From: an uncultured Candidatus Saccharibacteria bacterium
GTDB lineage: Bacteria > Patescibacteriota > Saccharimonadia > Saccharimonadales > AWTP1-31
Assembly: GCA_964536985.1 (NCBI GenBank)
Contig: CAZIBG010000001.1
Coordinates: 1-47,016, forward strand
Direction of reading: 5' to 3'
DNA length: 47,016 nt
Below the pieces are notes generated by a model, which searched no databases, had not been told where the DNA came from, and saw only the letters and a list, made by a program, of their open reading frames with translations. Below, one piece after another: positions 55 through 23,462 of this stretch. Both the position numbers and the translations under genes were made by a program. The first letter of the stretch is position 1. Each line of letters starts with the position of its first letter.

Positions 55-64
55 GAAAGTAGCC

Positions 65-6686: not shown

Positions 6687-6723
6687 GTGTTAGTTCCTAT
6701 GTTAACGCTTGTGTTTAATAGGT

Positions 6724-6752: not shown

Positions 6753-6763
6753 GTCTAAGCTAC

Positions 6764-7447: not shown

Positions 7448-7500
7448 AGTTACTAATATAGACTAGCTCGAGCGTTGTTGCTTGCGGAATACGTATGTTA
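6764..7500. repeat. Duplicated module: sortase gene plus the 3' end of the upstream surface gene (partner about 13508..14250)
   Basis: A perfectly identical run of about 125 nt (roughly 6843..6967 versus 13588..13712) is flanked by further near-identical stretches. Boundaries are approximate. Confidence 0.7.
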
Positions 7501-8965: not shown

Positions 8966-9003
8966 GGAGTAATCCCTTTATACATGTTTTTAGCGTTACC
9001 GGT

Positions 9004-9034
9004 ATTCTACCCCCCCCCCTGAGTTACAATGCAA
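9004..9034 (-). promoter_or_regulatory. Sigma70-like promoter with a G10 spacer tract, upstream of 7463..8965; IS30 abuts the -35
   Basis: Coding strand reads TTGCAT (9034..9029), then tgtaactca + G10 (19 nt), then TAGAAT (9009..9004). Confidence 0.6.
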
Positions 9035-10393: not shown

Positions 10394-10407
10394 CAATAGG
10401 GTAATGG

Positions 10408-13029
10408 TTAAGACTTTACACGAATGCGCTTCAATAAGCTCAGACTTAATATGACCAGCATTGAACTGCCGACGATAATATACCGAGTGTTCTGACCGGT
10501 GTCTGCCAATGAACCACCACTATGAGATTGTGGATTGCTGCCATTATCAATATTCGGATTTGAAGTATCTGTAGTTGCACCAAGAACTAAGCCCTTGAGC
10601 AATCTATCACCAAATATATCGTTAACCCACATATTACCTTCTGTATCAACTACTAGACTACCGCTATAGTAACCTAAGAAATTTTTATTAATTTCATCAG
10701 TTTGTGCGTCATCTCCGAATAATCCATAAGGAATAGGGGTAATTAATCGGTATGTGTTCATTTGATCGGAAGTATTGATTGTGACAATATCACCATTAAA
10801 TAGAAGAGCATGGAAAGTACCATCCCCTGCTAAGTGGATAGAGACAACATTACTACTTTGTCCTTCGGGCAAGGCGAACAAGGTTGCCTGACCACTAGCA
10901 TTGACCTTAACTATATTAAAATTATCATCATTAATACCGCCACTTACAAGCCAGGTATTGCCTAATACATCCATACTGATTGTTCTGCCTTCTGCGATTG
11001 CTGATATCGATGAATTGTCTTCTGGAATAAAATACTCTTCAATGGCCCCAGCTTGGTTCACTATCGCTAGGCTAGAAGTATTTTCGATAGGCTTTGCAAT
11101 CGATAATATTATTTGACCATTTGGATCTGTTGCCATTGACCCGACTAAATGATCCCCTTCTAAATCTATCGTACTAGAATCCCCGAGTGCTGAAATAATA
11201 TGTATACTTGATACTCCGAAACCAACAATATAGACAGAACCGCTAGAGGATAGGGCTAGATTAACAAGACCGTCAGTACAGATATTTTCTATTGGGTATA
11301 GATTTGTAACTTCAGTTTCGTAGAAATAATTTACAACTGTGTCATTTTCGCAATCCACATACCAAATACTATTATTGGACGCAATCGCCAAATTGCTATT
11401 ATTAGTGAGGATACTCGGAGGATTATCTTCTGGAACAGGGTAATATGTTGCCTGATCGGAAGAAGGGTTAAATTTCACAAACCGAGCTGGGGACCCGCTG
11501 CCATCAAAGAAGCCGCTTAGATCCAATCCCCAGAGATTTCCGGTAGAGTCCATGGTACGTAAACTGCCTGGGCTTGTTTGAGAGCTTAAGATAATATTAG
11601 GCTCAACAATCTCAACAGTTATGGGATCACTAGTACTTACATTGCCCTCGAAGTCAAAAGCTTTAGCCGTAAGGGTATGCTGACCTGCTGAGGTAGTCCA
11701 GCCATCCACTCCATAACGATTGATCCAGTTTATATCAAATGGACTTCTATTACTCGTATCTATTAGGGTTTCGTCAATATAGTAATCAACCTTAGTGACT
11801 TCTGTATTATCAGTGGCAGCTACGGATATGCTAAGGCTATTAGCTGTACTGTTGTTAGACGGGCTAGTAATACTGATACTCGGGCTGATAGTATCAGTAG
11901 CGACGTAGTCGGACGCATACAGCTTTGAATCTGCTGTTCCAACATAAAGTTTATTGGTAGCTTGGTCTACGGTTATCGAAGAAGTTGTGGATGGGAGGCC
12001 GGATATAGTCTGCCAACTAGTTAGATTTTTGGTCCGAAGAATTATTTTCTCGCTGGACGAGTTATTACAAAGCACATTAAGAAATTCACCAGATGACTCC
12101 ATGTCTAAGATGTAGTCACAGCCATAATTGTCATAGAGGTCTGTCACTTCTTCGTCGTTATAGTTATCTCCATCATAAGATTGCAATCTGTTGCCATCAC
12201 TACAGATTATTTTACCATCAAAAACCATAGGGTTGGGACCTCTAGCACTAGTGCCATTAGTACAGATATTCTCAGATGTACCGGTTGACCACGAAGCACC
12301 ATCATAAATCTGAGTATCAGCACCTTGGCCGTATACGTCTGCCTGCATATACATTTTACCGTCTAAGGCTTTACCCCAATAATATCGTTCAGAGTCATCT
12401 CCACTACCCGGGTTACGATTATTAGTTTGGGCTACTGACCAATTATCTCCCCCGTCTGTGCTGCGCCAGGCATAGGCTGTTTCGGTACTACCTCCAAACA
12501 TCCATAAATCAGTGCCATTGAGTGATTCAATATCAAATACATGCTCAGCATTGAAGGGTGTATGAATGCTCCAATTACTGGCATTATCACCGACAGCATA
12601 ACCACTTGGACAGCTTCCAGAACAGGTAGCATCGATTGTGGTCGTATAAAGCTTATTGTTAATAACCTTCCAATTACCAAGCGATTCGGATGGAACCGAT
12701 AAAACTGAACCATCGAAAGTACCACTGCTTAGATCAAAAGGGTTAATATCTATAGGCCCAGTGTTGGCTTGATAGTCTCCATACGCAGCAAATAGTTTGC
12801 TGTTAAATACTTGCAGATTATTAATAGTCTTACCAGTATCGGTAGTTTGAGCTGCCGCCTGAGGATGAGTTCCTAGAAGCGTAAAGCTCAAAGACACAGC
12901 CGCTTGGACTTTTAAAGTATTAATTAACTGAGATGAGACTAAGCTGGTCAGCAGTACCAATGAGATAAGTAAAAGCTGACAACGTTTTAAATTTTTTTTA
13001 ACATAGTTGTCTTTTTTAATTAAAAACAT
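10408..13029 (-). CDS. Large sortase-anchored surface protein (873 aa) with beta-propeller/BNR-like regions and an Ig-like domain; architecture differs from the beta-helix family
   Basis: It has a signal peptide, an Asp-box-like motif STDGGDNW and an Ig-like stretch (ISITSPSNN...VDYYIDE...HTLTAKAFDFEGN). The C-terminal half is repeat-rich. The sorting signal is LADTG followed by a hydrophobic stretch and KRIRVKS. Confidence 0.8.
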   Translation of the reverse strand: MFLIKKDNYVKKNLKRCQLLLISLVLLTSLVSSQLINTLKVQAAVSLSFTLLGTHPQAAAQTTDTGKTINNLQVFNSKLFAAYGDYQANTGPIDINPFDLSSGTFDGSVLSVPSESLGNWKVINNKLYTTTIDATCSGSCPSGYAVGDNASNWSIHTPFNAEHVFDIESLNGTDLWMFGGSTETAYAWRSTDGGDNWSVAQTNNRNPGSGDDSERYYWGKALDGKMYMQADVYGQGADTQIYDGASWSTGTSENICTNGTSARGPNPMVFDGKIICSDGNRLQSYDGDNYNDEEVTDLYDNYGCDYILDMESSGEFLNVLCNNSSSEKIILRTKNLTSWQTISGLPSTTSSITVDQATNKLYVGTADSKLYASDYVATDTISPSISITSPSNNSTANSLSISVAATDNTEVTKVDYYIDETLIDTSNRSPFDINWINRYGVDGWTTSAGQHTLTAKAFDFEGNVSTSDPITVEIVEPNIILSSQTSPGSLRTMDSTGNLWGLDLSGFFDGSGSPARFVKFNPSSDQATYYPVPEDNPPSILTNNSNLAIASNNSIWYVDCENDTVVNYFYETEVTNLYPIENICTDGLVNLALSSSGSVYIVGFGVSSIHIISALGDSSTIDLEGDHLVGSMATDPNGQIILSIAKPIENTSSLAIVNQAGAIEEYFIPEDNSSISAIAEGRTISMDVLGNTWLVSGGINDDNFNIVKVNASGQATLFALPEGQSSNVVSIHLAGDGTFHALLFNGDIVTINTSDQMNTYRLITPIPYGLFGDDAQTDEINKNFLGYYSGSLVVDTEGNMWVNDIFGDRLLKGLVLGATTDTSNPNIDNGSNPQSHSGGSLADTGQNTRYIIVGSSMLVILSLSLLKRIRVKS

Positions 13030-13073
13030 AGATTGATTACAACTCCCTAAGTTTAAGCAATAGCGTTACTGTT

Positions 13074-13103
13074 ATTCTACCCCCCCCCGGAGGGTTAGTG
13101 CAA
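13074..13103 (-). promoter_or_regulatory. Sigma70-like promoter with a G9 spacer tract, upstream of the 873-aa gene
   Basis: Coding strand reads TTGCAC (13103..13098), then taaccctcc + G9 (18 nt), then TAGAAT (13079..13074). Confidence 0.6.
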
Positions 13104-13157
13104 TAGGGTAATGGTTGCTAGCCTTTAGTAGTTAGTCTCAGTAGTATCTAAGTATTG

Positions 13158-13409
13158 TTACAGATCACCACTCAATATTCGGGATGCCTCAATATAGTGT
13201 TCTAGGTCTTCGGGAGTTCTTTGATCTACTGGCATTGAGAGGAAATCATGGAAGACATCAGATGCTTTCATAAGGTCTTCCTCGTAAGTTGACTCCAGGC
13301 TTGATTCAATCGCTGTACGACCTAGACCTGTTGGAAAATAAGAATCGCATTCTATTGCAGCAATCTCGTTACTAGTTATTGGTTTATCGCCGGCCTTAAC
13401 TTCACTCAC
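13158..13409 (-). CDS. Small acidic protein of unknown function (83 aa), diverged member of the 3-copy family
   Basis: It shares YFPTGLG...TYEEDL...YIEASRILSGDL with the 77-aa copies. Confidence 0.7.
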   Translation of the reverse strand: MSEVKAGDKPITSNEIAAIECDSYFPTGLGRTAIESSLESTYEEDLMKASDVFHDFLSMPVDQRTPEDLEHYIEASRILSGDL

Positions 13410-13507
13410 GAGTTAACTATCTTTTCTTAAATTATTTGGGTATAGATGAATAGTATCTAAAAAGCCTTGGTTGGTTATTGTTTTATACATAATATAACTA
13501 AAGTCTA

Positions 13508-14194
13508 TTACAATACTGCCTCAGCTACAATAATCACCCGAGAGTCATAGGTTTTGCTATCTTTATCAAATCGACCAGTGCACGTTATGAGGTTAAGTTG
13601 CTTAGGTATGGTTTTGTCGCGCACAAACAGCGCGGTGTCGGCCTCTTTAGTGGAAACTGTTTGGACTTGTTTGACTTTGAACTTTCTAACGCTTTTATCG
13701 CCGTAGGTTACCGTAAACGTATCGTCAGACTTAAGCTTACCCAAGTTGAAGAATATTCCTTTAGCATAGAGCCCATGGACATGTCCGTCGATGATACTGA
13801 GACCCGCGTCACCAGGTAAAGAGCCCGTGGTGTACCAGCCAGCCATATGGACGTTGCTTGGTACTACCATCTGGTTATCTTTATCAATGCCTACCTGTTG
13901 GATGAAGCCTTCTGTCTTAATCGTTGGTAGCTGAATAGAGAGTGGTTTGTCTGCGGGGACATTGTAGTTATCTGGTACTGGCTGCTCGCTGGGGGTGTCG
14001 GTAGATGCCGTCGACACCGTATGTCCAGCCGGTACACCGGCATGTTGAATGTTGTACCAGTTTCGTATTGCGTTCAGTCCGACACTAACAAGTACAAGGC
14101 CTACAACAAATAGTACGAGACGAACCTTTCGTTGAGTCTTCGAGGCTGGCCTTCGCTTTGATGAATTACTTCTACGCTTCTTTAATAGAGCCAT
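13508..14194 (-). CDS. Sortase (class F-like transpeptidase), copy 2
   Basis: It has the same His/Cys/Arg motifs as copy 1 (IIDGHVHG, LITCTG, YDSRVIIVA) and an N-terminal TM anchor. Confidence 0.85.
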   Translation of the reverse strand: MALLKKRRSNSSKRRPASKTQRKVRLVLFVVGLVLVSVGLNAIRNWYNIQHAGVPAGHTVSTASTDTPSEQPVPDNYNVPADKPLSIQLPTIKTEGFIQQVGIDKDNQMVVPSNVHMAGWYTTGSLPGDAGLSIIDGHVHGLYAKGIFFNLGKLKSDDTFTVTYGDKSVRKFKVKQVQTVSTKEADTALFVRDKTIPKQLNLITCTGRFDKDSKTYDSRVIIVAEAVL

Positions 14195-14209
14195 AGGTAC
14201 TAATATAGA

Positions 14210-15697
14210 CTAGCTCGTGCGTTGTTGCTTGCGGAATACGTATGTCAGCAATCCAAGTCCAAGTAAACCGACTAATACGTTTAGTATTTGTGTTGTAGAA
14301 CCTATACCGGTATTTGGAGCACCAGCGTTACCACCAGATGTAGACGGAGTGGACGCACCACAGACGGCACCTTCAAATTGGTAGGCACCGACAGATGGAC
14401 AGCTGTCAGGTCGAGCAATACCGCGGGCGTCGGTAGTTACACCAAGCACCGCGCTACCAGCAGCGATGGCTGGCGAACCGGCAAGCAACGCGCGAGTTGG
14501 GACATTGCCACCGTTATTCTGAAGAGGCCCAAGGGTGGAGATAATATTAGATACATTTTGCTGGTCACCGGTTTGGGTAAATGAAGTACAAGAGGCATCA
14601 TCAGAGATGTTGTTGCCAAGTGACGTAATCGTTGGCGTGCCCGTCCCGGAACCACCGGCATTGGGTGTTATATCAATAGTCGAACAGTTGGAAGAATCTG
14701 AACCCGATAGGTTGTCGGCAAATAAGCTGTTACTGACATTGATCGTGACAGATGCAGTATCACCACTAGTTTGCCCAAATGCAGCTGAGTAAAAGGCTGC
14801 TGATTTAGCCCCCGCAACCGGAAACAGGGTGCTCGTAATGCCACGAGTTCCAGTAATTGTCGCATTACTCACCGTCATATTAACCGCCGCATCACTTCCA
14901 GAAGCTATACTTAAGCCGACAAAAGCAGCTGCTACGCTCGTAGCTTTTATGTTATGGATTGTAGTATTAGAGATTGTCGTATTTATAATGCCCATGCCTT
15001 GAACTTGTGTTGCAAAACCAAAAGCGTCCCCACCTGATACAGAAGTATTTTGAATATTTGTTAGGGTGGTATTGTTTACGTTTACCGTAAGTGTCGCCCC
15101 ACCAGTTTCCTGAATATTAAATGCTGTAAGAGCAGTACTACTGTGGGTTATGTCGTGCATATATAGGTTATTTGTTGTTACGCTTTTGTCATCACCCGAA
15201 GTACTGATAATCACTATTGCCGTATCACCACCTGCGTTGGAGCCATCTACTTCGATATTCTGCAAAGTCACATCACAATCTTGTAGACCGATTGCTACAT
15301 TTGCGTATGAAGCAATTTTCATGTCCTGAATCGTAATAGCTACTCCAACAGCTTGTATCCCATCGTAGGCTCCGCTACTGCCATCTATGGCTGTAGTGTT
15401 CATGCCAGCGCCATGTATAGTTACGTCTTCCGTTATTTGAGGTAGATTAGTGTTAAGCGTAATAGTTCCAGCTGGGATGCTAATGGTGTCGCTCGAACCG
15501 TAACTACCACTTGCTGTACAACCGCTCTGGTTAGCTCCTGCGTTAACCGAGTCGATAGCAATAGGCAGCGTACAACCACCACTTACATTCAGTGTTGCCG
15601 CATGCGCCCGACCAGAACCAAAAGCCAAGACTGCCACGAAGGCAAAAGCTGCCAGGATGAGTTTATTTGTTTTAGTTAAATTCAGAATACTGAGCAT
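14210..15697 (-). CDS. Sortase-anchored surface protein with a beta-helix core and a choice-of-anchor-Q-like module (family member, 495 aa)
   Basis: The ORF track extends to 15829, but the family-conserved start MLSILNLTKTNKLILAAFAF is ATG 15697, preceded by an AGGAAA Shine-Dalgarno-like motif. The extra 44 codons read through the promoter, where the C tract is translated as GGG. The sorting signal is GAPNTG followed by a hydrophobic stretch and RKQQRTS. Confidence 0.85.
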   Translation of the reverse strand: MLSILNLTKTNKLILAAFAFVAVLAFGSGRAHAATLNVSGGCTLPIAIDSVNAGANQSGCTASGSYGSSDTISIPAGTITLNTNLPQITEDVTIHGAGMNTTAIDGSSGAYDGIQAVGVAITIQDMKIASYANVAIGLQDCDVTLQNIEVDGSNAGGDTAIVIISTSGDDKSVTTNNLYMHDITHSSTALTAFNIQETGGATLTVNVNNTTLTNIQNTSVSGGDAFGFATQVQGMGIINTTISNTTIHNIKATSVAAAFVGLSIASGSDAAVNMTVSNATITGTRGITSTLFPVAGAKSAAFYSAAFGQTSGDTASVTINVSNSLFADNLSGSDSSNCSTIDITPNAGGSGTGTPTITSLGNNISDDASCTSFTQTGDQQNVSNIISTLGPLQNNGGNVPTRALLAGSPAIAAGSAVLGVTTDARGIARPDSCPSVGAYQFEGAVCGASTPSTSGGNAGAPNTGIGSTTQILNVLVGLLGLGLLTYVFRKQQRTS

Positions 15698-15733
15698 GGT
15701 GAATTTCCTTATATAAGTTATAGCGTTACCGGT

Positions 15734-15763
15734 ATTGTACCCCCCCCCTGAGATACAATGCAA
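15734..15763 (-). promoter_or_regulatory. Sigma70-like promoter with a G9 spacer tract, upstream of 14210..15697
   Basis: Coding strand reads TTGCAT (15763..15758), then tgtatctca + G9 (18 nt), then TACAAT (15739..15734). Confidence 0.6.
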
Positions 15764-15773
15764 GGAACTAGAC

Positions 15774-16007
15774 TTATAGATCACCACTGAGTATTCGCGA
15801 GACATCGATGTAGCGTTGGCAGTCATCAATACTACGATCAGCTAGGGGAATGGCGAGGATACGCTCAAAGTCAATCTTTGCTACAGCCAAGTCTTCGTCA
15901 TAAGTTACAGCTAATTCTGAGGCCAATACTTTAGACCCGAGTGAAGACGGAAAATATAATCCACGCTCGGCGGCTATCAGTTCATAGTCTTGTATTCTGT
16001 CTGTCAT
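15774..16007 (-). CDS. Small acidic protein of unknown function (77 aa), near-identical copy of 65..298
   Basis: ORF track. Only a few substitutions separate it from the copy at 65..298. Confidence 0.7.
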   Translation of the reverse strand: MTDRIQDYELIAAERGLYFPSSLGSKVLASELAVTYDEDLAVAKIDFERILAIPLADRSIDDCQRYIDVSRILSGDL

Positions 16008-16124
16008 CTGTTAACCATACCATGTAGAGCGATATTCTCTAGTGTCCTTCTGCCGTGACATCCACCCGAAAGTCATAAGTTTTACTGGCTTTGTGCATCG
16101 GCTTCCTTCGAACGAACCACGAAC

Positions 16125-17639
16125 CTACTTTACTGCATTCCTCTTGCGTAGTGCGTAGGCAGTAATGCCAAGGCCCAGAGAAGTGGCAATAATCGTCATA
16201 GCTGGAGATACAGCGCCAATACCAGTGTTCGGAGCTCCGGCATTAGTTCCTGCGTTAGTCGTAGAGGCGCCACAGACAGCTCCTTCAAATTGGAAAGCGC
16301 CGACGGATGGGCAAGTACTTGGGCGAGCTACACCACGGGCATCAGTAGTTACACCTAGGACTGCGCCACCGGCTGAGATAGCTGGGCTGCCGGCCAGGAG
16401 TGCACGAGTCGGGACGACACCACCATTGTTTTGAAGGGGACCAAGTGTAGAGATAATATTGCTGACATTCTGCTGGTCACCTGGTTGATTAAAGCCCACA
16501 CAGCTGTCGTCATCTGAGATGTTATAACCGTTAGAAGTAATGACTTGCGTACCATCAGTACCACTACCCCCTATGGCGCTGGTTAGATCTGCGACCGTGC
16601 AGTTAGATGATACACCGTCGTTAAGGTTATCGGCCATCAGGCTATTGGTGACCGTTACAGTTGCATTTGCGCTATCACTCGGCTGATCAACAGCAGAAGC
16701 TGCATAAAAAGCCGCGGACTTAATCCCTGCAGCAGCAGCTGTTCCTAAAGCGCCTCTAAGTCCCGTGATAGTGATGCTTTTCACTGCAGTACTGACAGTG
16801 GCATCACCACCTACACCTGCTGCGAAACTACCGAAAGGTGCAGTAAAATCATCCCCCGTAAAGTCATGGATAGTCGTATTGGTTATGGTGGAATTTATTA
16901 CTCCTCCACCTAGTACCAAGACCTTGATGCCGTAAGTAAAATTGCCAGCGCCGGTATTATGAATATCTGCTATAGTAACATTTTTCAGGTTTACGTTCAT
17001 TGTCCCACCCGCACCGCCTTCGACCTCAATGGAAAGAACATCTAAGAATGATGTGGTATCAAATCCATGGATGTACAGGTTCTCCACATCCATACTTATT
17101 GTGTCTGTCGATCCACCGTTTAACGCCACACCTCTCTGGTCTGCGCCACCACCCGTACCATCAACTTCTATATTTTTTAATACGGTATTTACGTTTTTAG
17201 CTCGTATTGGACGGCCGTCAAACGCAGTGACCTTCAAATCTTGAATATTTACATCAATTAGTGGATCGGAGTCCCCGATTATTGCTTGTATACCCGTGTA
17301 GTTTCCGCTTCCACCGTTGATAATAGTCTGATCCATCCCCGCCCCCTTGATTGCGACAGATTCGGTGATGATTGGTAAATCCGCCGTCAAAGTCTGCGTC
17401 CCCGCCGGAATAGTAATAGTGTCATTGGTGCCGTATCCATTGGGAGATACTACTGCCGTACACCCAGACTGGTTAGCACCCGCATTAACCGAATTAATAG
17501 CGATTGGGAGGGTACAGCCTCCGGTCACGTTTAATGTAGCTGCATGTGCTCTTCCCGAACCAAAGGCCAGTACCGCCAAGAAAGCAAAAGTGGCCAGGAT
17601 GAGTTTGTGTGTTTTAGTTAGATCCAAAATACTGAGCAT
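16125..17639 (-). CDS. Sortase-anchored surface protein with a beta-helix core and a choice-of-anchor-Q-like module (family member, 504 aa)
   Basis: The ORF track extends to 17768. The conserved start MLSILDLTKTHKLILATFAF is ATG 17639, with an AGGAAA Shine-Dalgarno-like motif upstream. The sorting signal is GAPNTG followed by a hydrophobic stretch and RKRNAVK. Confidence 0.85.
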   Translation of the reverse strand: MLSILDLTKTHKLILATFAFLAVLAFGSGRAHAATLNVTGGCTLPIAINSVNAGANQSGCTAVVSPNGYGTNDTITIPAGTQTLTADLPIITESVAIKGAGMDQTIINGGSGNYTGIQAIIGDSDPLIDVNIQDLKVTAFDGRPIRAKNVNTVLKNIEVDGTGGGADQRGVALNGGSTDTISMDVENLYIHGFDTTSFLDVLSIEVEGGAGGTMNVNLKNVTIADIHNTGAGNFTYGIKVLVLGGGVINSTITNTTIHDFTGDDFTAPFGSFAAGVGGDATVSTAVKSITITGLRGALGTAAAAGIKSAAFYAASAVDQPSDSANATVTVTNSLMADNLNDGVSSNCTVADLTSAIGGSGTDGTQVITSNGYNISDDDSCVGFNQPGDQQNVSNIISTLGPLQNNGGVVPTRALLAGSPAISAGGAVLGVTTDARGVARPSTCPSVGAFQFEGAVCGASTTNAGTNAGAPNTGIGAVSPAMTIIATSLGLGITAYALRKRNAVK

Positions 17640-17675
17640 GGTGAGTTTCCTTATATAAGTTATAGCGTTACCGGT

Positions 17676-17706
17676 ATTGTACCCCCCCCCCGAACATAGT
17701 GTGCAA
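17676..17706 (-). promoter_or_regulatory. Sigma70-like promoter with a G10 spacer tract, upstream of 16125..17639
   Basis: Coding strand reads TTGCAC (17706..17701), then actatgttc + G10 (19 nt), then TACAAT (17681..17676). Confidence 0.6.
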
Positions 17707-17748
17707 ATTATTCTGTAAGACAATGTCTCTTTCCCCTGGAAACAGAAC

Positions 17749-17777
17749 AACCAATATTTGCTACGCAAATATTGGTT
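17749..17777 (-). terminator. Hairpin terminator candidate downstream of the replication-relaxation-like gene
   Basis: A perfect 13-bp stem pairs aaccaatatttgc with gcaaatattggtt around a 3-nt loop. On the minus strand it is followed by GTTCTGTTTCC. It lies between the stop at 17798 and the first array promoter. Confidence 0.5.
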
Positions 17778-17797
17778 ACTGCTTTAATCCACAGAGA

Positions 17798-18571
17798 CTA
17801 GTGGTCTATAGCTAGAAACTCAAATTTAACACTAACCCAGTTATTGTCTAGCTCTCGTTTAGTCAAATTCTGCAATCTTCGCTCAAGCGCTTTTGTTTCA
17901 CAAGCTATTAGTATGACTGGGAAGTCACGTTCAGTGGCTTTCTGCCACTTTTCTGACTCGGCATACGTAATATAGCGTCTTATACAATTTTTGATCCTCC
18001 AGTAGGGTGCACTGGCCTCATAGAAGCTCAGGAAATAGTCTGAATTGGTTAGTTTGGGCTCGTTCGAGCCACCGTTATCCTTAAACTCTTCGCTCTTTTC
18101 TAGATAAGCATCGGTCAGATCTCTTGGGAGCTTATATTTCAAGCTAGGTAGTTCGGTCTTGCTGAAGAATTGAAACTGCTTAGGGTAATTTTGTTTGATA
18201 AACACATAGGCCTTAAAGACGTTCAGCCTGTGTTGGATATGACCATCGTCTTTGTTTTTGTCGTAGTAGGCTTGCTTGAGTACGTTTGGATCTGCAAATG
18301 GCTGCTTTCTGAGTATTTGTATTCCTTTTGGTAGTAAGTGATATGTAGCTGGCTTACCGATGATCTTATAGCTACTGTCGTAGTTCTGACCTATGTAGCC
18401 TTGACCTACTAATATCTTTAGTCTTGTTAGTATTACTCTGGTATGTTTAGCTCCTTGACTTGAGGCAATGATTTGAGCTGTTGCATAGCGAAATTTATAG
18501 AGTGTAGTGAGTAGTTGAAGTTGATGTGAGTTTATAGGTCGGTGTTTGGTGTTGGTAGGTTGTGGTGTCAT
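17798..18571 (-). CDS. Replication-relaxation (Replic_Relax)-like protein
   Basis: The N-terminal winged-helix-like pattern LQLLTTLYKFRYATAQIIAS...RLKILVGQGYI...YHLLPKG resembles PF13814 family members. The context (next to a serine recombinase) fits. No search was run. Confidence 0.5.
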   Translation of the reverse strand: MTPQPTNTKHRPINSHQLQLLTTLYKFRYATAQIIASSQGAKHTRVILTRLKILVGQGYIGQNYDSSYKIIGKPATYHLLPKGIQILRKQPFADPNVLKQAYYDKNKDDGHIQHRLNVFKAYVFIKQNYPKQFQFFSKTELPSLKYKLPRDLTDAYLEKSEEFKDNGGSNEPKLTNSDYFLSFYEASAPYWRIKNCIRRYITYAESEKWQKATERDFPVILIACETKALERRLQNLTKRELDNNWVSVKFEFLAIDH

Positions 18572-18757
18572 AGTGGTTTATATACGCCTATCTATGTTAA
18601 TAGATAAGTAAGTAAAGATGCAAGCCCTTAACACCTTGAAAATTGACTGTTATGTATCCTGCCGTTGAGATATCCACAGTTGTATTTAATACCTTGATAA
18701 TACACTTGTAGGTATACTTATTAGTGGTATATACTAAGCTTATAAGTGGGGGTAGCC

Positions 18758-18925
18758 ATGAAACAGAAAGAACCAATCCAGCCGAGCCCAGAAGACACTT
18801 CCGAAGCGCCGTTGTCAGATAATGAGCGTATCGATCTCATCGCTAATTTACTTTTGGATTACTTAGATGAAGAGCAATCGGGAGAAGAAGGGTCATGCAA
18901 GACGACGCAAACAAAAATGCTGTAG
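18758..18925 (+). CDS. Small acidic ORF (55 aa) overlapping the recombinase start; possible accessory or directionality factor
   Basis: ATG 18758 is preceded by TGGGGGT. The frame runs to TAG at 18923..18925 and overlaps the recombinase ATG by 31 nt. It is below the ORF-track length cut-off and no homology was recognised. Confidence 0.3.
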   Translation: MKQKEPIQPSPEDTSEAPLSDNERIDLIANLLLDYLDEEQSGEEGSCKTTQTKML

Positions 18926-20610
18926 CAGCTATTCGTGTCTCGACCACAAAGCAGGGTACGGAGGGTGACTCACCGGAAGCACAGAAAGAGCAAATTGAAC
19001 GTTTTGCCCTAACTCGTGGTATCACCATTAAAAAGTTTTTCGTATTTTTGGAATCCGCCAGTAAAGAGCAGCAGCCAATGCAGGAAGCTATTGATTACTG
19101 CAAGAATCCTAAGAACGGGATTGAGCTGTTTATCATAAAATCGATTGATCGTTTTACCAGGGGCGGATCACTTTCTTATGACCTGCTCAAAAACCAGCTG
19201 GAAGCAAATAATGTGTCATTGGTAGATATTTACGGTGTGATTAGTTCTCGGCAGGTGAATACCCTAGAACACCTCGGCTTTGAATATAAGTGGAGTAAAT
19301 ACTCTCCAAGTAAGAAATCCGAGATATTAGAGGCTGAGCGATCCAAGGATGAGTTACGAGACATTATGAGTCGCATGATTGGGGCTGAAATTCGCTATAC
19401 CCAACTTGGTTTTTGGATGAGACAACCGCCGTTCGGTTTTGTCAGTGAGAAAGTCGAGACGAACAATGGTAAACGCTGCATCTTGCGGCCTCACCCGACT
19501 GAAGCCCAATACATTACTAAGATTTTTGATCTACGTGCGCGTGGCACCATGCGCGACATGGAAATTGTCGAGGAAGTTAATAAGCTAGGCTATCGAGGAC
19601 GTGTCCATTATGTTCGTGATAGGAGCGATCGATCTAAAGTTTTAAAGAAGCGCGGAGGCGATCCCTTGACTCTCAAAGCCTTGGATCGTATCGTCACTAA
19701 CCCAATCTACGCAGGGATTAATGCCGAGAAGTGGACAGACGGCAAGCCAGTACAATGCGCTTTTAAAGGGTTAATATCCATTGAACAGTTCAACCGAGCC
19801 AACAAAGGCAAAAAGATCATTACCAAAGATGACCAAGGCGACATTGTCATAGTAAAAAGAGAGCCAGAGCCACGGTATGCGGTCATTAAAGGCTCACGAA
19901 ACCCTGATTTCCCGTACCGCAAGTTTGTACTATGCCCAGAGTGCCATAGACCGCTCATTGGCAGCGCATCGCGAGGTAAGTCCGGTAAACACTATCCAGC
20001 CTATCACTGTGACAAACGAGGCCATTATTTCCGTGTACCTAAAAAGGAGCTGGAGGACAGAGTGAATGAATTTATCAACGGTATTCGTGTGTCGCCGGAG
20101 CAGGTCGATAAAGTTCTGAATGTTATTGAGGCCGAGTGGAAGAAACGAGAACAGGCGCTCAAACAAGAGCTTGAGACGCTTGATAGCCACATCCAGGGCT
20201 TACGTACCGAAATCGACATGACCGGAAGCAAGATTAAGCTCGTGAGCAACGAGACAGCAATTAAATACATAGAGGAGGACATTGTGCGTATAGAACAACA
20301 AATTAAAGAGCTGGAGGCTACTAAGATGAAGAAGATCAACCGTAAACCGATTAACTGGCAGCGCTTGAAGGCTAGGGTTCGTTACCTGGCGGAACACTTT
20401 GATGAGCTACTGTTACAACAGATTGATCCGGTCAAAAAAGCACAGTTTTTTGCCGCATTATTCAATAATTTTCCAACATTTGAAGATTTAGCCAGCGGAA
20501 CACCCGGCAAGTCAAACTTTACTGGGGTGAATCCAATATTTTCTCTCGCTAAATTACCTACTACCCATTTGGTGACCTCACCGGGAATCGAACCCGGATT
20601 GCCGGGATGA
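18895..20610 (+). CDS. Large serine recombinase
   Basis: The catalytic motif is AAIRVSTTKQG. It has a recombinase domain, a zinc ribbon (CPECHRPL...YHCDKRGH) and a C-terminal coiled coil. The last 41 nt overlap the tRNA-Glu gene on the opposite strand. Confidence 0.9.
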   Translation: MQDDANKNAVAAIRVSTTKQGTEGDSPEAQKEQIERFALTRGITIKKFFVFLESASKEQQPMQEAIDYCKNPKNGIELFIIKSIDRFTRGGSLSYDLLKNQLEANNVSLVDIYGVISSRQVNTLEHLGFEYKWSKYSPSKKSEILEAERSKDELRDIMSRMIGAEIRYTQLGFWMRQPPFGFVSEKVETNNGKRCILRPHPTEAQYITKIFDLRARGTMRDMEIVEEVNKLGYRGRVHYVRDRSDRSKVLKKRGGDPLTLKALDRIVTNPIYAGINAEKWTDGKPVQCAFKGLISIEQFNRANKGKKIITKDDQGDIVIVKREPEPRYAVIKGSRNPDFPYRKFVLCPECHRPLIGSASRGKSGKHYPAYHCDKRGHYFRVPKKELEDRVNEFINGIRVSPEQVDKVLNVIEAEWKKREQALKQELETLDSHIQGLRTEIDMTGSKIKLVSNETAIKYIEEDIVRIEQQIKELEATKMKKINRKPINWQRLKARVRYLAEHFDELLLQQIDPVKKAQFFAALFNNFPTFEDLASGTPGKSNFTGVNPIFSLAKLPTTHLVTSPGIEPGLPG

Positions 20611-20644
20611 GAACCCGAATTCCTAACCGTTAGAAGATGAGGCC
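20570..20644 (-). tRNA. tRNA-Glu (anticodon CUC), 75 nt with encoded CCA
   Basis: Folded by hand from GGCCTCATCTTCTAACGGTTAGGAATTCGGGTTCTCATCCCGGCAATCCGGGTTCGATTCCCGGTGAGGTCACCA. The 7-bp acceptor stem has one G-U pair. The D arm is TTCT/GGAA. The anticodon stem is TCGGG/CCCGG with loop TTCTCAT. The T arm is CCGGG-TTCGATT-CCCGG. Confidence 0.85.
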
Positions 20645-20868: not shown

Positions 20869-22164
20869 ATGGTCCCTATAATTATCGGAGTAGTCGTTGT
20901 GCTTATCGCGGCATGCTTTTTTGTATGGAATATGGGTAATGATAAACCTGTTGACCAAAAGACCGTTCACGCCAACCCCGTAGGAGCAATTCTAGGAGAT
21001 CAACGCTCCGACAATATTCTCGAGTCTGTGTCTGATGGCATTGTAGTCATTGATCTTAAGGGTAGAGTCACCATGATCAACAGCGCAGCCGGTCTTTTAG
21101 CGGGCTGGTCAACCAAGGATGCTCTGGGCATCGATCACCGCTCAGTCTTCCAGTTCTGCGATGTAAAAGGCAAACCGTATGACGATGCCGCCAACCCACT
21201 CTCTAAATTGCTTCGCACCGGCAAACCATACCGCGACAGCGACGCCATGCTCATAACCAAAGGCAGTGAAAAGCGGATATCAGTGAGCGTCAGTGTTTCT
21301 CCTCTGGTCAGCCAAGGTCAGTTAAGTGGAGCGGTGGGCGTACTGCGTGATGTCAGTGAAGAAAAGAACGCCGAACGTCAGCGGGCCGAATTTATCAGTA
21401 CTGCCAGTCACGAGATGCGCACCCCAGTAGCAGCAATCGAAGGCTATTTGGCCCTCGCCATGAACGCCAAGGTCACTAATATCGACGAAAAGGCGCGTGA
21501 CTATCTTGCCAAGGCACACGAATCAACACAGCACCTTGGTAGTCTTTTCCAGGACCTACTTACTAGTGCCAAGGCAGAGGATGGGCGACTCATCAGCCAT
21601 CCAGAAATGATAGAGATGGGCAGCTTCCTCAGAAAGCTCACAGAAGACCTGAAATTCGTAGCAGAAAAGAAGAACCTCGATGTCGAATACGTTGTCGGCA
21701 CAAGTGGTGCAAGTGTAAACGGCAACACCGAGACCGGTAGCGTTCGGGTGGTGCAACCACTCTACAATGTGTACGCCGATCCTGAGCGGATTAGGGAAGT
21801 TATCACCAACCTATTTGATAACGCCGTTAAATATACCGAGAGCGGCAAGATATCTATTGGCCTAACAGGGGACGACGACATTGTCCAAGTATATGTCCGC
21901 GATACCGGGAACGGCATCCCCTCAGAAGACCTGCCTCATCTATTCCAGAAATTCTATCGTGTAGATAACTCATCCACCCGCACCATCGGTGGTACGGGTC
22001 TGGGGCTCTTTATCTGCCGCAAGATTATCGAAATGTACAATGGCCGTATTTGGGTGGAAAGTGAGCAGCAAAAAGGCAGTACCTTCTACATTAATCTACC
22101 TCGCCTCAGCAGGCAGCAAGCCAACGAGATGGCATTAAAGTCTGCCAACAAAGTCTCCTCCTAG
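20869..22164 (+). CDS. Sensor histidine kinase (TM, PAS, HisKA and HATPase domains)
   Basis: H-box SHEMRTP, N-box NLFDNAVKYT, G1 DTGNGI and G2 GGTGLGL, with an N-terminal TM helix. Confidence 0.9.
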   Translation: MVPIIIGVVVVLIAACFFVWNMGNDKPVDQKTVHANPVGAILGDQRSDNILESVSDGIVVIDLKGRVTMINSAAGLLAGWSTKDALGIDHRSVFQFCDVKGKPYDDAANPLSKLLRTGKPYRDSDAMLITKGSEKRISVSVSVSPLVSQGQLSGAVGVLRDVSEEKNAERQRAEFISTASHEMRTPVAAIEGYLALAMNAKVTNIDEKARDYLAKAHESTQHLGSLFQDLLTSAKAEDGRLISHPEMIEMGSFLRKLTEDLKFVAEKKNLDVEYVVGTSGASVNGNTETGSVRVVQPLYNVYADPERIREVITNLFDNAVKYTESGKISIGLTGDDDIVQVYVRDTGNGIPSEDLPHLFQKFYRVDNSSTRTIGGTGLGLFICRKIIEMYNGRIWVESEQQKGSTFYINLPRLSRQQANEMALKSANKVSS

Positions 22165-22238
22165 AAATCTATAGACCAGGGCAAGACTTGAGTGGTACAA
22201 TTGAGTCAACATAAGCATTAGAGGAATACGAACAGACC

Positions 22239-23462
22239 ATGGCAAAAATAATGCTCGTCGAAGACGACAACAACCTACGCGAAATCTACGGTGCTCGATT
22301 ATTAGCCGAAGGATATGAAATTGTCTCAGCCAAAGATGGTGAAGAAGCGCTTGCAATTGCTGTTAAAGAAAAGCCCGACCTAATTATTAGCGATATCATG
22401 ATGCCAAAAATCAGTGGTTTCGATATGCTCGATATTCTCCGCAGCACGCCTGAAACCAAAGAAACCAAAGTCATTATGATGACCGCCCTCAGCCAGGCCG
22501 AAGATAAAGAAAGAGCTGGTAAGCTTGGTGCTGATCGTTATCTTGTTAAATCTCAGGTCACTCTGGAAGATGTCGCCAAAGCCGCAGCCGAAGTGCTGGC
22601 CGAAGCAGGTATAACCGATGCAGCCGCAGAGGCAACACTTGCTGCCGCTGCCACTACAGCTACACCAGCCGAACCAGCCGCAGTCGTAGCAGAACCGGCC
22701 GCAACTCCAGCACCAGTAGCTGCCGAACCAGCTGTGGCCGCGCCAGTTGCCACGCCAGAACCCGTTGCTGCTACGCCGACACCAGTTGCAGTCGCAGAAC
22801 CGGCAGCCGCAGTACCAACACCCGTGACAGTAACTGAACCTGCTGCTCCAGCAGATCCTGTGGCAGCCACACCAGTTGCAGCGGATCCAGCAGTTGTCGC
22901 AGTACCCGTAGCGACACCAGAGGTTACTGCCGTACCCGAACCAGTAACTCCTACTCCGACGCCAGAACCTGTTGCTGCTACGCCGACACCAGTTGCAGTC
23001 GCAGAACCGGCAGCCGCAGTACCAACACCCGTGACAGTAACTGAACCTGCTGCTCCAGCAGATCCTGCTGTAACAGTACCAGCCGAGCCCGCCGCAGCAA
23101 TCAAGCCAGCCTCAATCGCAACACCACCCGCATCCGATCCAGCAACGGCACCAACCGACAACCAACAAGTACTAGCCGACACTGTAGCGGCGGTCGGGAC
23201 GGCATCGTCTACAAGCACTGTCGATAATTCTCCTAAAACATCTGTCCATACCAGAGTCATAACTCCTATCAACGACATTAATCAGACCCCTCCGGATCTT
23301 GAAAAACTCATGGCTGAAGAAGAGGCAAAAACCGCAGCTCCCACTGGACTTCCACCAATTCTCCCAGCAACTCCCGCACAGGCAGAAGCCGCCGCCCCAG
23401 CTGCACCCGGCGCTGTAGACGATAGCATTACCATCTCTCCAGACGGTACTATTCAGCAATAG
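22239..23462 (+). CDS. Response-regulator receiver domain protein with a roughly 280-aa Pro/Ala/Thr/Val-rich C-terminal tail and no recognisable output domain
   Basis: The REC motifs are EDD, the phospho-acceptor D in LIISDIMMP, and K in YLVKS. The rest is low complexity and contains an exact 34-aa duplication. Confidence 0.85.
   Translation: MAKIMLVEDDNNLREIYGARLLAEGYEIVSAKDGEEALAIAVKEKPDLIISDIMMPKISGFDMLDILRSTPETKETKVIMMTALSQAEDKERAGKLGADRYLVKSQVTLEDVAKAAAEVLAEAGITDAAAEATLAAAATTATPAEPAAVVAEPAATPAPVAAEPAVAAPVATPEPVAATPTPVAVAEPAAAVPTPVTVTEPAAPADPVAATPVAADPAVVAVPVATPEVTAVPEPVTPTPTPEPVAATPTPVAVAEPAAAVPTPVTVTEPAAPADPAVTVPAEPAAAIKPASIATPPASDPATAPTDNQQVLADTVAAVGTASSTSTVDNSPKTSVHTRVITPINDINQTPPDLEKLMAEEEAKTAAPTGLPPILPATPAQAEAAAPAAPGAVDDSITISPDGTIQQ
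22758..23067 (+). repeat. 103-bp direct repeat (22758..22860 and 22965..23067, period 207 bp) inside the Pro/Ala-rich tail
   Basis: The two copies differ at one position by eye (gaacccgtt versus gaacctgtt). Both encode EPVAATPTPVAVAEPAAAVPTPVTVTEPAAPADP. Confidence 0.85.

Follow-up and report, generated by a model that had tools for sequence, protein, structure and literature searches.

Gene content of the window and overlap of the recombinase gene with tRNA-Glu

The window, i.e., the whole 47,016-nt stretch of DNA that was analyzed, is part of contig C1 of a Candidatus Saccharibacteria genome (G000) and was found by ARAGORN to carry a single tRNA gene, tRNA-Glu with a CTC anticodon (Table 1). 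The gene is 75 nt in length, encodes its CCA end and forms a regular cloverleaf. A pseudogene had been considered in the preliminary description; instead, the tRNA gene is intact and is also the host gene at the empty sites of relatives (see below). The ORF of a large serine recombinase (LSR) of 571 aa converges on this gene and terminates in HLVTSPGIEPGLPG followed by a stop codon. The overlap of the two genes (20570..20610) is 41 nt and takes in codons L559 to G571, 13 sense codons in all, together with the stop codon, with two of the three bases of the first overlap codon, L559, inside the tRNA. The antisense overlap noted at the outset was thus exact in its 41 nt, while the histidine listed with it sits just outside the tRNA. 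Pfam scans detected the accessory genes to the left of the LSR under the names first given to them (Replic_Relax-like, IS30-type, DUF3800 and surface array). Two tRNA-Glu(CUC) genes that differ from each other were observed in the genome, with an LSR paralog overlapping each of them, and tRNA-Glu(UUC) was absent from the assembled sequence.

Table 1. Coordinates of features in the window (contig C1 of G000) and of island bounds in relatives.
Feature	Position	Strand or location	Basis or remark
Right-hand 20.6 kb of island	1..20585		Contig starts within island; left-hand part is C18:7126-21607 of the same genome
Variable cargo, array of paralogous secreted/surface protein genes	416..17768	-	Pfam scans
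Orphan CdiA_C-domain ORF	2088-2486	+	Pfam scans
DUF3800 gene	4255-4878	-	Pfam scans
Two sortases in cargo	6764-7447, 13508-14194	-	Pfam scans
IS30-type transposase (HTH_38 and rve)	9087-10337	+	Pfam scans
Big_7/Vgb_lyase-like protein, 873 aa	10408-13029	-	Pfam scans
Replic_Relax-like gene, putative relaxase, divergent from LSR operon	17798..18571	-	PF13814, 24.9 bits, just below cut-off of 25.3
Acidic ORF, 55 aa, candidate recombination directionality factor or LSR partner	18758..18925 (ATG start)	+	Overlaps LSR start by 31 nt
LSR, 571 aa, integrated-state (short) form	18895..20610	+	Pfam
att core at tRNA-proximal junction, TGGTGACCTCACCGGG, 16 bp	20570..20585		Second copy at C18:7126-7141
Interval that must contain the crossover	20570..20580		Base comparison of far copy and tRNA
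Putative host-derived end of LSR ORF (P563 to G571 and stop), antisense of tRNA T arm	20581..20610	+	Varies with host tRNA among LSRs 96-99% identical
tRNA-Glu(CUC), host target gene, intact	20570..20644	-	Same gene beside same kinase in empty sites
Core flank: histidine kinase (20869-22164) and response regulator (22239-23462)	20869..23462	+	Synteny with tRNA-Glu(CUC) in G017, G015, G025, G002 and G024
G002 island bounds	C58 148477/177349	single contig	16-mer core
G003 island bounds	C1 241615/252293	single contig	16-mer core
G024 island bounds	C6 53048/about 65990	single contig	16-mer core

The recombinase and its family

The LSR was matched by the Pfam models Resolvase (PF00239, 38.7 bits, cut-off 23.3) and Recombinase (PF07508, 22.4 bits, cut-off 21.1). 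The match to Zn_ribbon_recom (PF13408) scored 17.9 bits, below the cut-off of 25.3, yet C347, C350 and C372 were found to be invariant in the alignment. Residues R14 and S16 (RVS motif) and the DRFTRGG motif, which we take to be the catalytic ones, were invariant in two alignments, of 17 and 46 sequences, and the LSR profile matched the TP901-1 catalytic domain (E = 1.1e-7). An AlphaFold model of a 600-aa LSR paralog displayed helices at 400-446 and 451-480 and was aligned by Foldseek with full-length serine integrase structures over 567 columns (E = 9e-16), at low whole-chain TM-scores of 0.27-0.33; LSR identity to solved LSRs was 13-20%. The protein has the make-up of an LSR, in that an N-terminal catalytic domain with a serine is followed by a recombinase domain and then by a zinc ribbon with a coiled-coil insertion, the same domain order as in studied LSRs (cryo-EM integrase-att-RDF structures 9dxd/9dxh, Bxb1 9iu2, phiC31 4bqq and TP901-1 3bvp).

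The end of the LSR ORF was found to overlap a convergent tRNA in 20 of 30 LSR loci of the same bacterial family (in the same codon phase in 19 of the 20) and in 60 of 80 wider LSR loci from other genomes across Patescibacteria (same phase in 56 of the 60); the compared genomes are kin, and these are not counts of independent events. Because the overlap recurs in this manner and mostly in one codon phase, the comparison of loci indicates that it is no chance juxtaposition. The target tRNAs of the wider loci were Glu, Gln, Phe, Leu, Arg or Lys and clustered by LSR clade.

In textbook and database practice, tRNA-gene targeting is tied to tyrosine integrases, and studied LSRs are known to target protein-coding or intergenic sites. 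The position of a serine recombinase at a tRNA, initially regarded as unusual, is not a one-off, as a large Patescibacteria clade of tRNA-targeting LSRs was detected. No report of tRNA-targeting serine integrases was found in the literature text searched, and the word 'tRNA' does not occur in the main text of Durrant et al. 2022, the largest LSR survey checked. The genome studied has one tyrosine recombinase compared to two full LSRs and a weak third serine-recombinase match.

Extent and content of the island

The att core at the tRNA was found to have an exact second copy on contig C18 of the same genome, where the repeat of the tRNA 3' end extends to 17 nt with the preceding T (C18:7125-7141). 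The direct repeat of the tRNA 3' segment that had been expected upstream therefore exists on C18; none was detected upstream within the window. The exact identity over 16 bp is explained by tRNA conservation and not by a need of the enzyme; the cores of studied serine integrases are 2-12 bp, shorter than the repeat observed here. A bidirectional terminator (C18:7099-7117) precedes the far att copy, and the genes that follow it encode a PLDc_2 nuclease, a 76-aa ORF and an 886-aa TraG/TrwB-type coupling protein (Pfam TraG-D_C, 26.9 bits, cut-off 22; TrwB_AAD_bind, 24.3 bits, cut-off 20.5). When placed on the G002 island, C1:1-778 matched positions 5356-6134 and the end of C18 mapped to about 5015. 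The genome is metagenome-assembled, and the C18-C1 link rests on binning and on this collinearity; a gap still separates the two, into which short contigs (C42 or C50, for instance) might fall.

Modules repeated in the cargo had matches of 68-91% identity at numerous positions of the G002 island. The Replic_Relax-like gene has a counterpart of 259 aa at the matching position in G003, which scored 30.1 bits for PF13814, and a homolog adjoins the LSR in other elements too. With an integrase and a coupling protein and/or putative relaxase, and without a full secretion system, the island has the composition of an integrative mobilizable element (IME). No VirB4-type match was detected among the Pfam-scanned island ORFs, a set that leaves aside some ORFs such as the 2597-aa ORF of C18, and the one weak VirB4-type match of G000 falls outside the island, on contig C3. 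This gene content would not make the island a self-transmissible integrative conjugative element (ICE), which has its own VirB4 and mating pore.

Occupied and empty sites in relatives

The same 16-mer core was found to bound whole single-contig islands in three relatives, G003 (10.7 kb), G024 (12.9 kb) and G002 (28.9 kb). The island ends are conserved (far ends 87% identical over 3.6-3.75 kb, LSR ends 88-89% identical over 2.9-3.3 kb) and the middles variable. The segment of the window from 17304/17380/17797 to 20644 was 88-89% identical to the LSR-proximal island ends in G003, G002 and G024, the value for G003 being 88% at the DNA level. Island-free relatives, with which a comparison had been advised, were represented by G017, G015 and G025: all three keep the tRNA-Glu(CUC)/histidine-kinase/response-regulator locus without an LSR, and at these empty sites the tRNA comes immediately after the terminator, with the kinase and regulator genes alongside. 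The left chromosomal flank (an MFS gene on C18) showed no synteny in the relatives examined; therefore, the empty-site argument rests on the tRNA/kinase side and the terminator. Elements sharing both conserved ends were detected in other genera, and the chromosomal site was empty in others.

The LSR protein was 96-99% identical across four genera, compared to 61-76% identity among relatives for the flanking histidine kinase. Codon differences from the G000 copy of the LSR numbered 13 to 139 synonymous versus 5 to 20 non-synonymous; for the G002 copy, 121 codons differed synonymously and 12 non-synonymously. Judged by these comparisons, the LSR element is spread horizontally under selection.

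Taken together, the att repeats, the bounded islands and the empty sites support the main reading of the preliminary description, which places here the edge of an element that entered the 3' part of a tRNA gene. Based on sequence comparison, the window very probably contains the tRNA-side end of a mobilizable element of ~35 kb that has integrated in Candidatus Saccharibacteria, with LSR-driven entry into the 3' end of tRNA-Glu and with attP inside the LSR gene.

Alternative explanations

A quite unlikely alternative is that the element integrated by the proposed route but that this copy no longer excises or transfers, the overlap now being a fixed chromosome structure. Such a fossil would be in keeping with the IS30-type insertion in the cargo, with a 9.4-kb extra segment and rearranged cargo compared to G002, and with the placement of the transfer genes after a host terminator, with no consensus promoter in the stretch from there to the nuclease start. 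By contrast, strong purifying selection acts on the LSR, whose ORF is unbroken; the two att copies match exactly over all 16 nt, neither of the conserved end modules lacks a part, and elements of this type are found in four genera. Given the IS30 insertion and the rearranged cargo, this particular copy may no longer be mobile.

The adjacency of LSR and tRNA in most loci, together with the two LSR-overlapped tRNA-Glu(CUC) genes of G000 and its lack of an assembled tRNA-Glu(UUC), would also fit a tRNA that is itself cargo of the element, i.e., an LSR-tRNA module that travels together and has no chromosomal target. This explanation is very improbable, as tRNA-Glu(CUC) was found beside the same kinase without an LSR in G017, G015 and G025, as the T stem and even the anticodon (CTC or TTC) follow the host beside LSRs that are 96-99% identical, and as entry into a resident gene predicts a displaced 3' fragment such as the one at the far end.

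Insertion of the island by another enzyme (an IS30-type transposase or tyrosine integrase), with the LSR as resolvase or invertase on the surface array, would make sense of the repetitive paralogous cargo and the IS30-type gene but is hardly credible, since the minimal 10.7-kb G003 island is without a second recombinase among eight scanned ORFs, G000 has no tyrosine recombinase besides one on contig C5, the LSR has all the parts of an integrase, with a recombinase domain, a zinc ribbon and a coiled coil, and the island ends are exact site-specific junctions and not IS-type inverted repeats. Action of the recombinase on the repetitive array, also raised initially, found no backing: a second att-like core was not detected in the window even when mismatches were allowed.

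Probable crossover position and proposed exchange of the LSR C-terminus

Returning to LSR-driven entry into the tRNA, the far copy in G003, G016 and G024 was found to retain the element-type CACCGGG, and the tRNA to retain its own T-stem bases from core position 12 on. Among near-identical LSRs, the last 14 residues diverge only past codon S562. By this comparison, the crossover would lie within the last 11 nt of the tRNA and, by comparison with a WWE3 relative (see below), probably within the last 6 nt, which include the CCA complement. With a crossover in the last 11 nt or fewer, the last nine LSR codons and the stop codon would therefore be host DNA. Re-supply of the tRNA segment by the element, as envisaged earlier, would thus apply to the tRNA tip, which is restored over at most its last 11 nt, and not to the whole 41-nt overlap.

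At attP-type junctions, the LSR is extended by a conserved tail of 38 aa, and the end of this tail shares bases with the beginning of the nuclease gene. The LSR ORFs of tandem arrays (G014:C25, G001:C5 and G002:C60) are 600-601 aa long; they cross the core without a frame change, include the tail and lead on to the nuclease gene. The diverged tail of L028 contains none of the codons ATG, GTG and TTG, and the tail codons of G002 and G024 differ by synonymous changes. The tail was modelled at pLDDT below 50, and thus there is no structural support for a role of the tail. In a complete WWE3 genome, tail-homologous sequence was detected in frame just upstream of a PLD gene, 32 kb from the LSR, and only GTTGGCTG is common to the PLD-side junction and the tRNA-Gln end. 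WWE3 is a second phylum-level lineage.

In the mechanism we propose, the LSR would recombine attP, inside its own 3' coding region, with an attB composed of the terminal tRNA nucleotides and the terminator hairpin normally 3' of the tRNA. Because the crossover would be in the last 11 nt of the tRNA, the element would restore only the tRNA tip, and the tRNA T arm would supply the last nine LSR codons and stop. In the circular or tandem state, the LSR would read into the conserved tail of ~38 aa, the stop of which overlaps the start of the PLD-family nuclease gene, and the coupling-protein gene would come after the nuclease gene, downstream of the tail. Integration would swap the LSR C-terminus and would cut the nuclease and coupling-protein genes from the LSR operon, leaving them behind the host terminator. 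We tentatively extend this scheme to a possible, if doubtful, general model, in which a tRNA-specialised LSR clade would place its crossover in the CCA-end complement common to every tRNA gene it targets and could thereby hop among tRNA species. In this model, because attP is inside the integrase gene, two LSR forms would be made: a long form (with the 38-aa tail) only from circle or tandem copies, and a short form (with the tRNA-antisense end) from the integrated copy. The small partner gene overlapping the LSR start suggests joint production of partner and LSR, and the tail would decide between integration and excision, as a switch for directionality and transfer that is built into the att site.

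Comparison to known systems

In Tn916, the transfer genes are transcribed across the circle joint, and mycobacteriophage repressor genes contain attP. These switches resemble the present element in that an att site lies in a transcription unit and the products differ between the integrated and excised states; they use tyrosine recombinases, whereas here it is the integrase gene itself that would be cut, with a hypothetical regulatory effect.

Streptococcal ICEs/IMEs with single serine integrases target rumA (Ambroset et al. 2016, PMC4701971). As in the account given of these systems, the LSR gene is found at an end of the element, which is conjugative or mobilizable, and a direct repeat is located inside the integrase 3' end; therefore, integration exchanges the C-terminal coding parts of integrase and target. 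The element of G000 has the repeat in the integrase 3' end but is not of the rumA type, as its target is a tRNA gene with a 3' tip that would be restored, compared to a protein-coding target with an altered product in the systems of PMC4701971. The hosts also differ (Patescibacteria here, Firmicutes in PMC4701971), and the conserved upstream partner gene and nuclease-coupled tail observed here are not described in the parts of PMC4701971 consulted.

The Islander definition of tRNA-gene islands refers to tyrosine integrases (Hudson, Lau and Williams 2015, PMC4383910). Similarly to the islands described in the sections of PMC4383910 consulted, the island of G000 has an intact tRNA adjoining the island integrase gene, a displaced 3' fragment at its far end and a tRNA gene regenerated by element sequence, and tandem arrays occur at one tRNA. 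It differs in enzyme family, with the last 6-11 nt resupplied and no tyrosine integrase in the island: no PF00589 match was detected there, and the sole tyrosine recombinase of G000 (C5:51187-51714) is away from it.

A large conserved LSR clade of the candidate phyla radiation that does tRNA-gene targeting bends the tyrosine-integrase rule. It would explain the movement of surface-protein cargo between genera of ultra-small epibiotic bacteria, as well as the assembly breaks at tRNA-Glu and the overlaps of recombinase ORFs with tRNAs that are met by annotators. The integrase, attB and partner may provide a natural set for genetics in Saccharibacteria and relatives, where tools are few, and the swap of the integrase C-terminus would be a simple system for testing att-in-integrase control of directionality.

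A small acidic ORF as candidate LSR partner

A homologous small ORF (consensus MxRxKGSKNK...LSxxERxxxLAxLxxExIxEE) was found ahead of the LSR in most loci. Complex prediction for the small ORF with the LSR gave a score of 0.62 (0.62, 0.60 and 0.64 in three runs) versus 0.01 for the best of three controls; solved complexes attained this mark in 58 of 80 cases and mismatched pairs in 2 of 110, a rough guide only, since own alignments were used. At least 44% of contacts agreed among the runs, partner pLDDT was at least 52, and the predicted interface was on LSR residues 406-418 and 483-526, at the base of the coiled coil. Solved complexes of LSRs with recombination directionality factors (RDFs) exist, and part of the score could stem from likeness to them. 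The early idea of a directionality factor has gained support from the conserved synteny and from the complex prediction with its controls, and the 55-aa ORF is a candidate LSR partner that, by these models, may well set directionality. All RDFs were predicted to bind at the coiled-coil base in the account of Shin et al. 2025 (PMC12286644), and the small partner was likewise predicted here to sit where the second DNA-binding domain meets the coiled coil. The RDFs of that account were stressed to be without synteny with the integrase gene (PMC12286644); by contrast, the partner gene detected here is syntenic with the LSR and overlaps its start.

Serine recombinase gene ending within tRNA-Glu

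ARAGORN detected a single tRNA gene in the window, a tRNA-Glu of 75 nt with anticodon CTC, a CCA encoded in the gene and a regular cloverleaf fold. The convergent ORF of 571 aa has Pfam matches to Resolvase, Recombinase and, weakly, Zn_ribbon_recom, and its product is a large serine recombinase (LSR) by domains, invariant residues and fold; by PDB sequence search, solved integrases were matched by the catalytic domain only. The final 41 nt of this ORF are the reverse complement of the tRNA CCA end, acceptor strand and T arm. The coordinates and terminal peptide reported for this overlap in the preliminary description were correct, save that the histidine falls just outside the tRNA. In the integrated state the tRNA-Glu gene is without its terminator hairpin, so that transcripts of this gene would continue, antisense, into the 3' end of the LSR (window 20239-20610), where a weak terminator-like site is the sole one downstream of the tRNA.

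Coordinates of the features. C1, C2, C5, C18 and C24 are contigs of the studied genome (the window is the start of C1); G002, G003 and G024 are family relatives.
Feature	Location	Length	Identity	Content
LSR ORF	window 18895..20610 (+)	571 aa		
tRNA-Glu(CUC)	window 20570..20644 (-)	75 nt		
Small acidic ORF	window 18758..18925 (+)	55 aa		overlaps LSR start
Terminator-like site	window 20253-20239 (-)			antisense to LSR end
Surface-protein cargo	window 416-17768			
CdiA_C ORF	window 2088-2486 (+)	132 aa		
Far att copy	C18:7125-7141	17 nt	exact	
Terminator hairpin	C18:7099-7117			bidirectional
140-nt unit (L002)	C18:6968-7125			
140-nt unit	C2:100930-about 101086			
Second LSR (L004)	C24:9675-11411		66%	
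Tyrosine recombinase	C5:51187-51714			
tRNA-Arg(CCU)	C5:52730-52804			
G002 island	G002:C58 148477 and 177349	28.9 kb		two 16-mer copies
G003 island	G003:C1 241615 and 252293	10.7 kb		two 16-mer copies
G024 island	G024:C6 53048 and tRNA ~65990	12.9 kb		two 16-mer copies
Conserved far end		3.6-3.75 kb	87%	tail ORF, nuclease, 76-aa ORF, coupling protein
Conserved LSR end		2.9-3.3 kb	88-89%	Replic_Relax-like gene, small ORF, LSR

The island, its far end and its empty sites

The preliminary description had placed an integrated island to the left of the tRNA and called for a repeat of the tRNA 3' segment as its other att site. The window is the first 47 kb of contig C1 (127 kb), which belongs to a 1.07-Mb genome with 55 contigs and a completeness of 95.5%. 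As the contig begins at window position 1, the other end of such an island could not lie in the window. With up to 3 mismatches allowed, the 27-mer put forward as repeat query had a single match in the window and a single match in the genome; it missed the far copy because that copy shares just 16-17 nt. By short-word BLAST of the whole genome, the second copy was found on contig C18 in the same orientation as the tRNA region, and the same repeat bounds islands in G002, G003 and G024. The terminator hairpin lies directly to its left, with an MFS transporter gene beyond; to its right are genes for a PLDc_2 nuclease, a 76-aa ORF, an 886-aa TraG/TrwB-type coupling protein and a 2597-aa ORF. Comparison of C18:6800-7300 with Rfam gave no match that came close to a gathering score. 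On the coordinates of G002, the end of C18 falls at about 5015 and the beginning of C1 at 5356; by this collinearity and by binning, on which the link rests, the two contigs are probably neighbours with a small gap between. Given that adjacency, the island would measure about 14.5 + 20.6 kb.

All 26 family genomes were searched for the 16-mer TGGTGACCTCACCGGG with 1 mismatch allowed, and 10 of them contained it. In three genomes, an LSR-bearing island was present on a single contig between two same-strand copies (see table). At all far junctions the host terminator is followed by the 16-bp core repeat and then by a conserved [g/t][a/t]tggagcggaacaccctaag..., while at all near junctions ...cccatt precedes the core and aatcgaacc, the remainder of the tRNA, follows it. 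The islands of G002 and G024 occupy the same tRNA/kinase locus as that of the window, and G003 and G016 carry a nearly identical LSR at a tRNA-Glu(UUC) sharing the same 3' end. The comparison with relatives that lack the island, also suggested earlier, gave three loci (G017, G015 and G025) with an intact tRNA directly after the terminator, followed by the same histidine kinase (61-76% identical), response regulator and two more genes as in the window (to the contig end in G015). These loci are empty sites. Given the far att copy, the single-contig islands and the empty sites, none of three situations held to speak against an island (the same overlap in relatives without any island, absence of an att repeat, or a tRNA pseudogene with a functional copy elsewhere) was encountered. 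As judged from the conserved ends of the islands and the C18/C1 collinearity, all window sequence left of 20585 is island, in agreement with the preliminary description.

Between the conserved ends, the cargo is variable and consists of paralogous surface-protein genes and sortases. In the minimal island of G003 the LSR is the only recombinase among eight scanned ORFs. The studied genome has one tyrosine recombinase (contig C5) and one weak VirB4-type match (contig C3). Because a coupling protein and a relaxase-like gene are present and a secretion ATPase of its own is absent, we infer that the element looks mobilizable, not self-transmissible. About 1 kb separates this sole tyrosine recombinase from a tRNA-Arg(CCU) gene.

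Metagenome contigs

Among 24 listed sequencing runs, 20 hold the window stretch or part of it, from 11 wastewater and freshwater metagenome studies. Runs X1, X4, X5 and X6 were examined as assembled contigs at a likeness threshold of 88%. One X1 contig, 4618 nt long, extends over the LSR, the tRNA and the flank and has 9 differences. At 20567-20570 there are loose ends, which are terminator hairpins joined to the tRNA; given the 88% threshold, they are empty-type sites of other strains or species. A junction of the LSR end with the far end was detected in none of the contigs of the four runs, a result that is uninformative on excision as contigs drop rare forms. A metagenome scan with the 26-nt window stretch over the LSR end and core returned 2 contigs, both of the integrated form.

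Position of the crossover

In the studied genome and G002 both core copies are the identical 16-mer. In G003, G016 and G024 the T-stem bases of the host tRNA differ from core position 12 on; the tRNA-side copy retains these host bases, while CACCGGG, the element type, stands in the far copy. In seven LSR genes that share 90-99% DNA identity, differences in the last 14 residues occur only at codons 563-569, after S562. Retention of the T-stem bases on the tRNA side together with the codon differences after S562 places the crossover, as mapped by polymorphism, within 20570..20580. The far junction of the WWE3 element, 32 kb upstream of its LSR, shares only GTTGGCTG with the tRNA-Gln end and, if the position is conserved, the crossover would fall in the last six tRNA nucleotides, CCA included. 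The core contains a perfect palindrome, GGTGA-CC-TCACC, whose central CC (20576-20577) was rejected as the crossover: the WWE3 junctions already diverge at core position 7, so that only positions 1-6 are left, again provided that the position is conserved. With the crossover so placed, the element would restore just the tRNA tip, and the tRNA would supply LSR codons 563-571 and the stop.

A proposed attP-state C-terminus of the LSR

At G014:C25 and G001:C5, an LSR 52-55% identical to that of the window is followed by the core and a far-end module of the window's element type, with no tRNA; the nuclease of this module is 92-95% and the coupling protein 88-97% identical to those of the studied genome. 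Both relatives also hold a window-type LSR at a tRNA, and the two loci are tandem arrays. The LSR ORF at these junctions is 600 aa long and ends in ...PGMERNTLSLQELDEKLEELGLVE... Three elements stand in tandem at G002:C60, where one junction gives a 601-aa ORF with a diverged homologous tail that has no ATG, GTG or TTG codon of its own. Tail codons differ synonymously between G002 and G024, a homologous tail is encoded in the same phase at the WWE3 far end, and in the studied genome the tail stop overlaps the nuclease ATG, upstream of which lies GGAGG. On these grounds (the tandem-junction ORFs, the codon pattern, the WWE3 tail and the nuclease overlap) the tail is read as the putative native C-terminus of the LSR in the attP state. 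Integration would replace this tail and leave the nuclease and coupling-protein genes behind the host terminator; in a weak test, the stretch from this terminator to the nuclease start yielded no consensus promoter. In a model of the 600-aa form, pLDDT was <50 at residues 553-571 and 581-600, and thus the predicted fold is uninformative on the role of the tail. A precedent is described for rumA-targeting streptococcal ICEs (PMC4701971), where integrase C-termini are exchanged, as is likewise proposed here for the LSR.

Small ORF upstream of the LSR

The small acidic ORF had been suggested as a possible directionality factor. An ORF of at least 35 aa ends near the LSR start in 106 of 110 loci, some of these ORFs being spurious. 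Sixty-five distinct ORFs pass a motif filter that was built from the feature itself, so this count is descriptive only; 50 were aligned, and the consensus is MxRxKGSKNK...LSxxERxxxLAxLxxExIxEE. Its basic start, which may resemble an AT-hook, is absent from the window copy. No Pfam family was matched by the small ORF.

A predicted complex of the small ORF product with the LSR scored 0.62 (0.62, 0.60 and 0.64 in three runs) compared to 0.01 for the best control; likeness to solved LSR-RDF complexes, which exist, may help this score. Of 80 solved complexes, 58 attain the 0.62 mark, as do 2 of 110 mismatched pairs; the calibration is rough since our own alignments were used for the prediction. At least 44% of contacts are common to the runs, and partner pLDDT is at least 52. 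The predicted interface sets the conserved helix of the small ORF (residues 21-45) against the base of the LSR coiled coil (residues 406-418 and 483-526); according to Shin et al. 2025 (PMC12286644), all RDFs are predicted to bind at the DBD2/coiled-coil junction. The modeling supports binding of the small ORF product to the LSR.

tRNA targets of the LSR family

LSR homologs at E <= 1e-20 were found in 15 of the 26 family genomes, with at most 5 per genome. The ORF of the second LSR of the studied genome extends across the entire length of another tRNA-Glu(CUC), 77 nt long; no repeat of this tRNA 3' end was found as a far att of its element, and the contig stops 1.4 kb past the LSR. The LSR ORF ends within a convergent tRNA gene in 20 of 30 family loci (codon phase identical in 19 of 20), and the overlap is 41 nt at all 13 loci with 75-nt tRNA-Glu genes; as the compared genomes are kin, such counts describe a habit and not independent events.

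A wider scan with one genome per species gave 330 stretches encoding LSR relatives, of which the best 80 were analysed. An overlapped tRNA was present in 60 of these 80 loci: Glu-UUC (33), Glu-CUC (9), Gln-CUG (5), Phe (4), Gln-UUG (3), Leu-UAA (2), Arg-CCG (2), Arg-CCU (1) and Lys-UUU (1). The remaining 20 comprise 5 ORFs that run off the contig and 15 loci without a tRNA, several of which stop at a contig edge and have a tail read from tRNA antisense sequence. Microgenomates, Levyibacteriota and the complete WWE3 genome CP006914 are among the hosts. In a tree built from 92 distinct LSRs, the target tRNA clusters by clade, with 36 label changes compared to a shuffled mean of 50.1 and none of 200 shuffles reaching 36; the label is the last nearby tRNA, and therefore rows L050, L055 and L124 differ from the 80-locus survey.

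The island has the signature of Islander-type tRNA islands in all respects but the enzyme family, a tyrosine integrase there and an LSR here. In main texts of the literature we found no report of serine integrases targeting tRNA genes, though supplements to TIGER/Islander, ProBord and Durrant may list some, nor of such elements in Saccharibacteria or Patescibacteria. The 2014 Islander database paper (PMC4383910) states that serine integrases at tRNA genes are not known, a 2026 provirus survey (PMC13626063) gives RNA regions as the preferred target of tyrosine integrases, and LSR sites are not described by Hackl et al.

A conserved unit flanking tRNA-Glu

The 3' flank of tRNA-Glu(CUC), tRNA-Glu(UUC) and at least one other tRNA is normally a conserved unit of about 140 nt, and a BLAST-type search found this unit in 12 of the 26 family genomes. 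Besides the two copies in the table, it occurs at G025:C18 (two tandem copies), G014:C16, G017:C1:101976-102102, G015:C14, G020:C8, G021:C6, G024:C6 and C10, and G019:C8. Each unit opens with a 15-20-nt copy of the adjacent tRNA 3' end, sometimes degenerate, that co-varies with that tRNA. Compensatory changes are seen in the three hairpins of the body (e.g. GGAGU/ACUCC, GGAAU/AUUCC and GAUGC/GCAUC), and a terminator closes the unit. This terminator end is the non-tRNA arm of the LSR attB. Nothing similar was found in Rfam; a small structured RNA and a miniature non-autonomous insertion are both possible identities of the unit.

ARAGORN found 40 tRNA genes in the studied genome, of which two are tRNA-Glu(CUC) and none is tRNA-Glu(UUC). 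Contig C2 ends with a displaced UUC-type tRNA-Glu 3' end fragment, followed by one 140-nt unit and then by the first part of the far end of another element. An unassembled array of elements is the probable location of the UUC gene.

Cargo genes

A lone ORF in the surface-protein cargo encodes a CdiA_C domain (PF18451, E = 1e-14), which is the C-terminal toxin domain of contact-dependent inhibition systems. The cargo genes of the window and of the G002 island (L034/L035) have common, conserved 5' and 3' modules of 150-400 nt, and these modules recur many times within and between islands at 68-91% identity, a pattern that fits recombination-driven variation of surface proteins. The repeated modules also explain the assembly break at window position 1.
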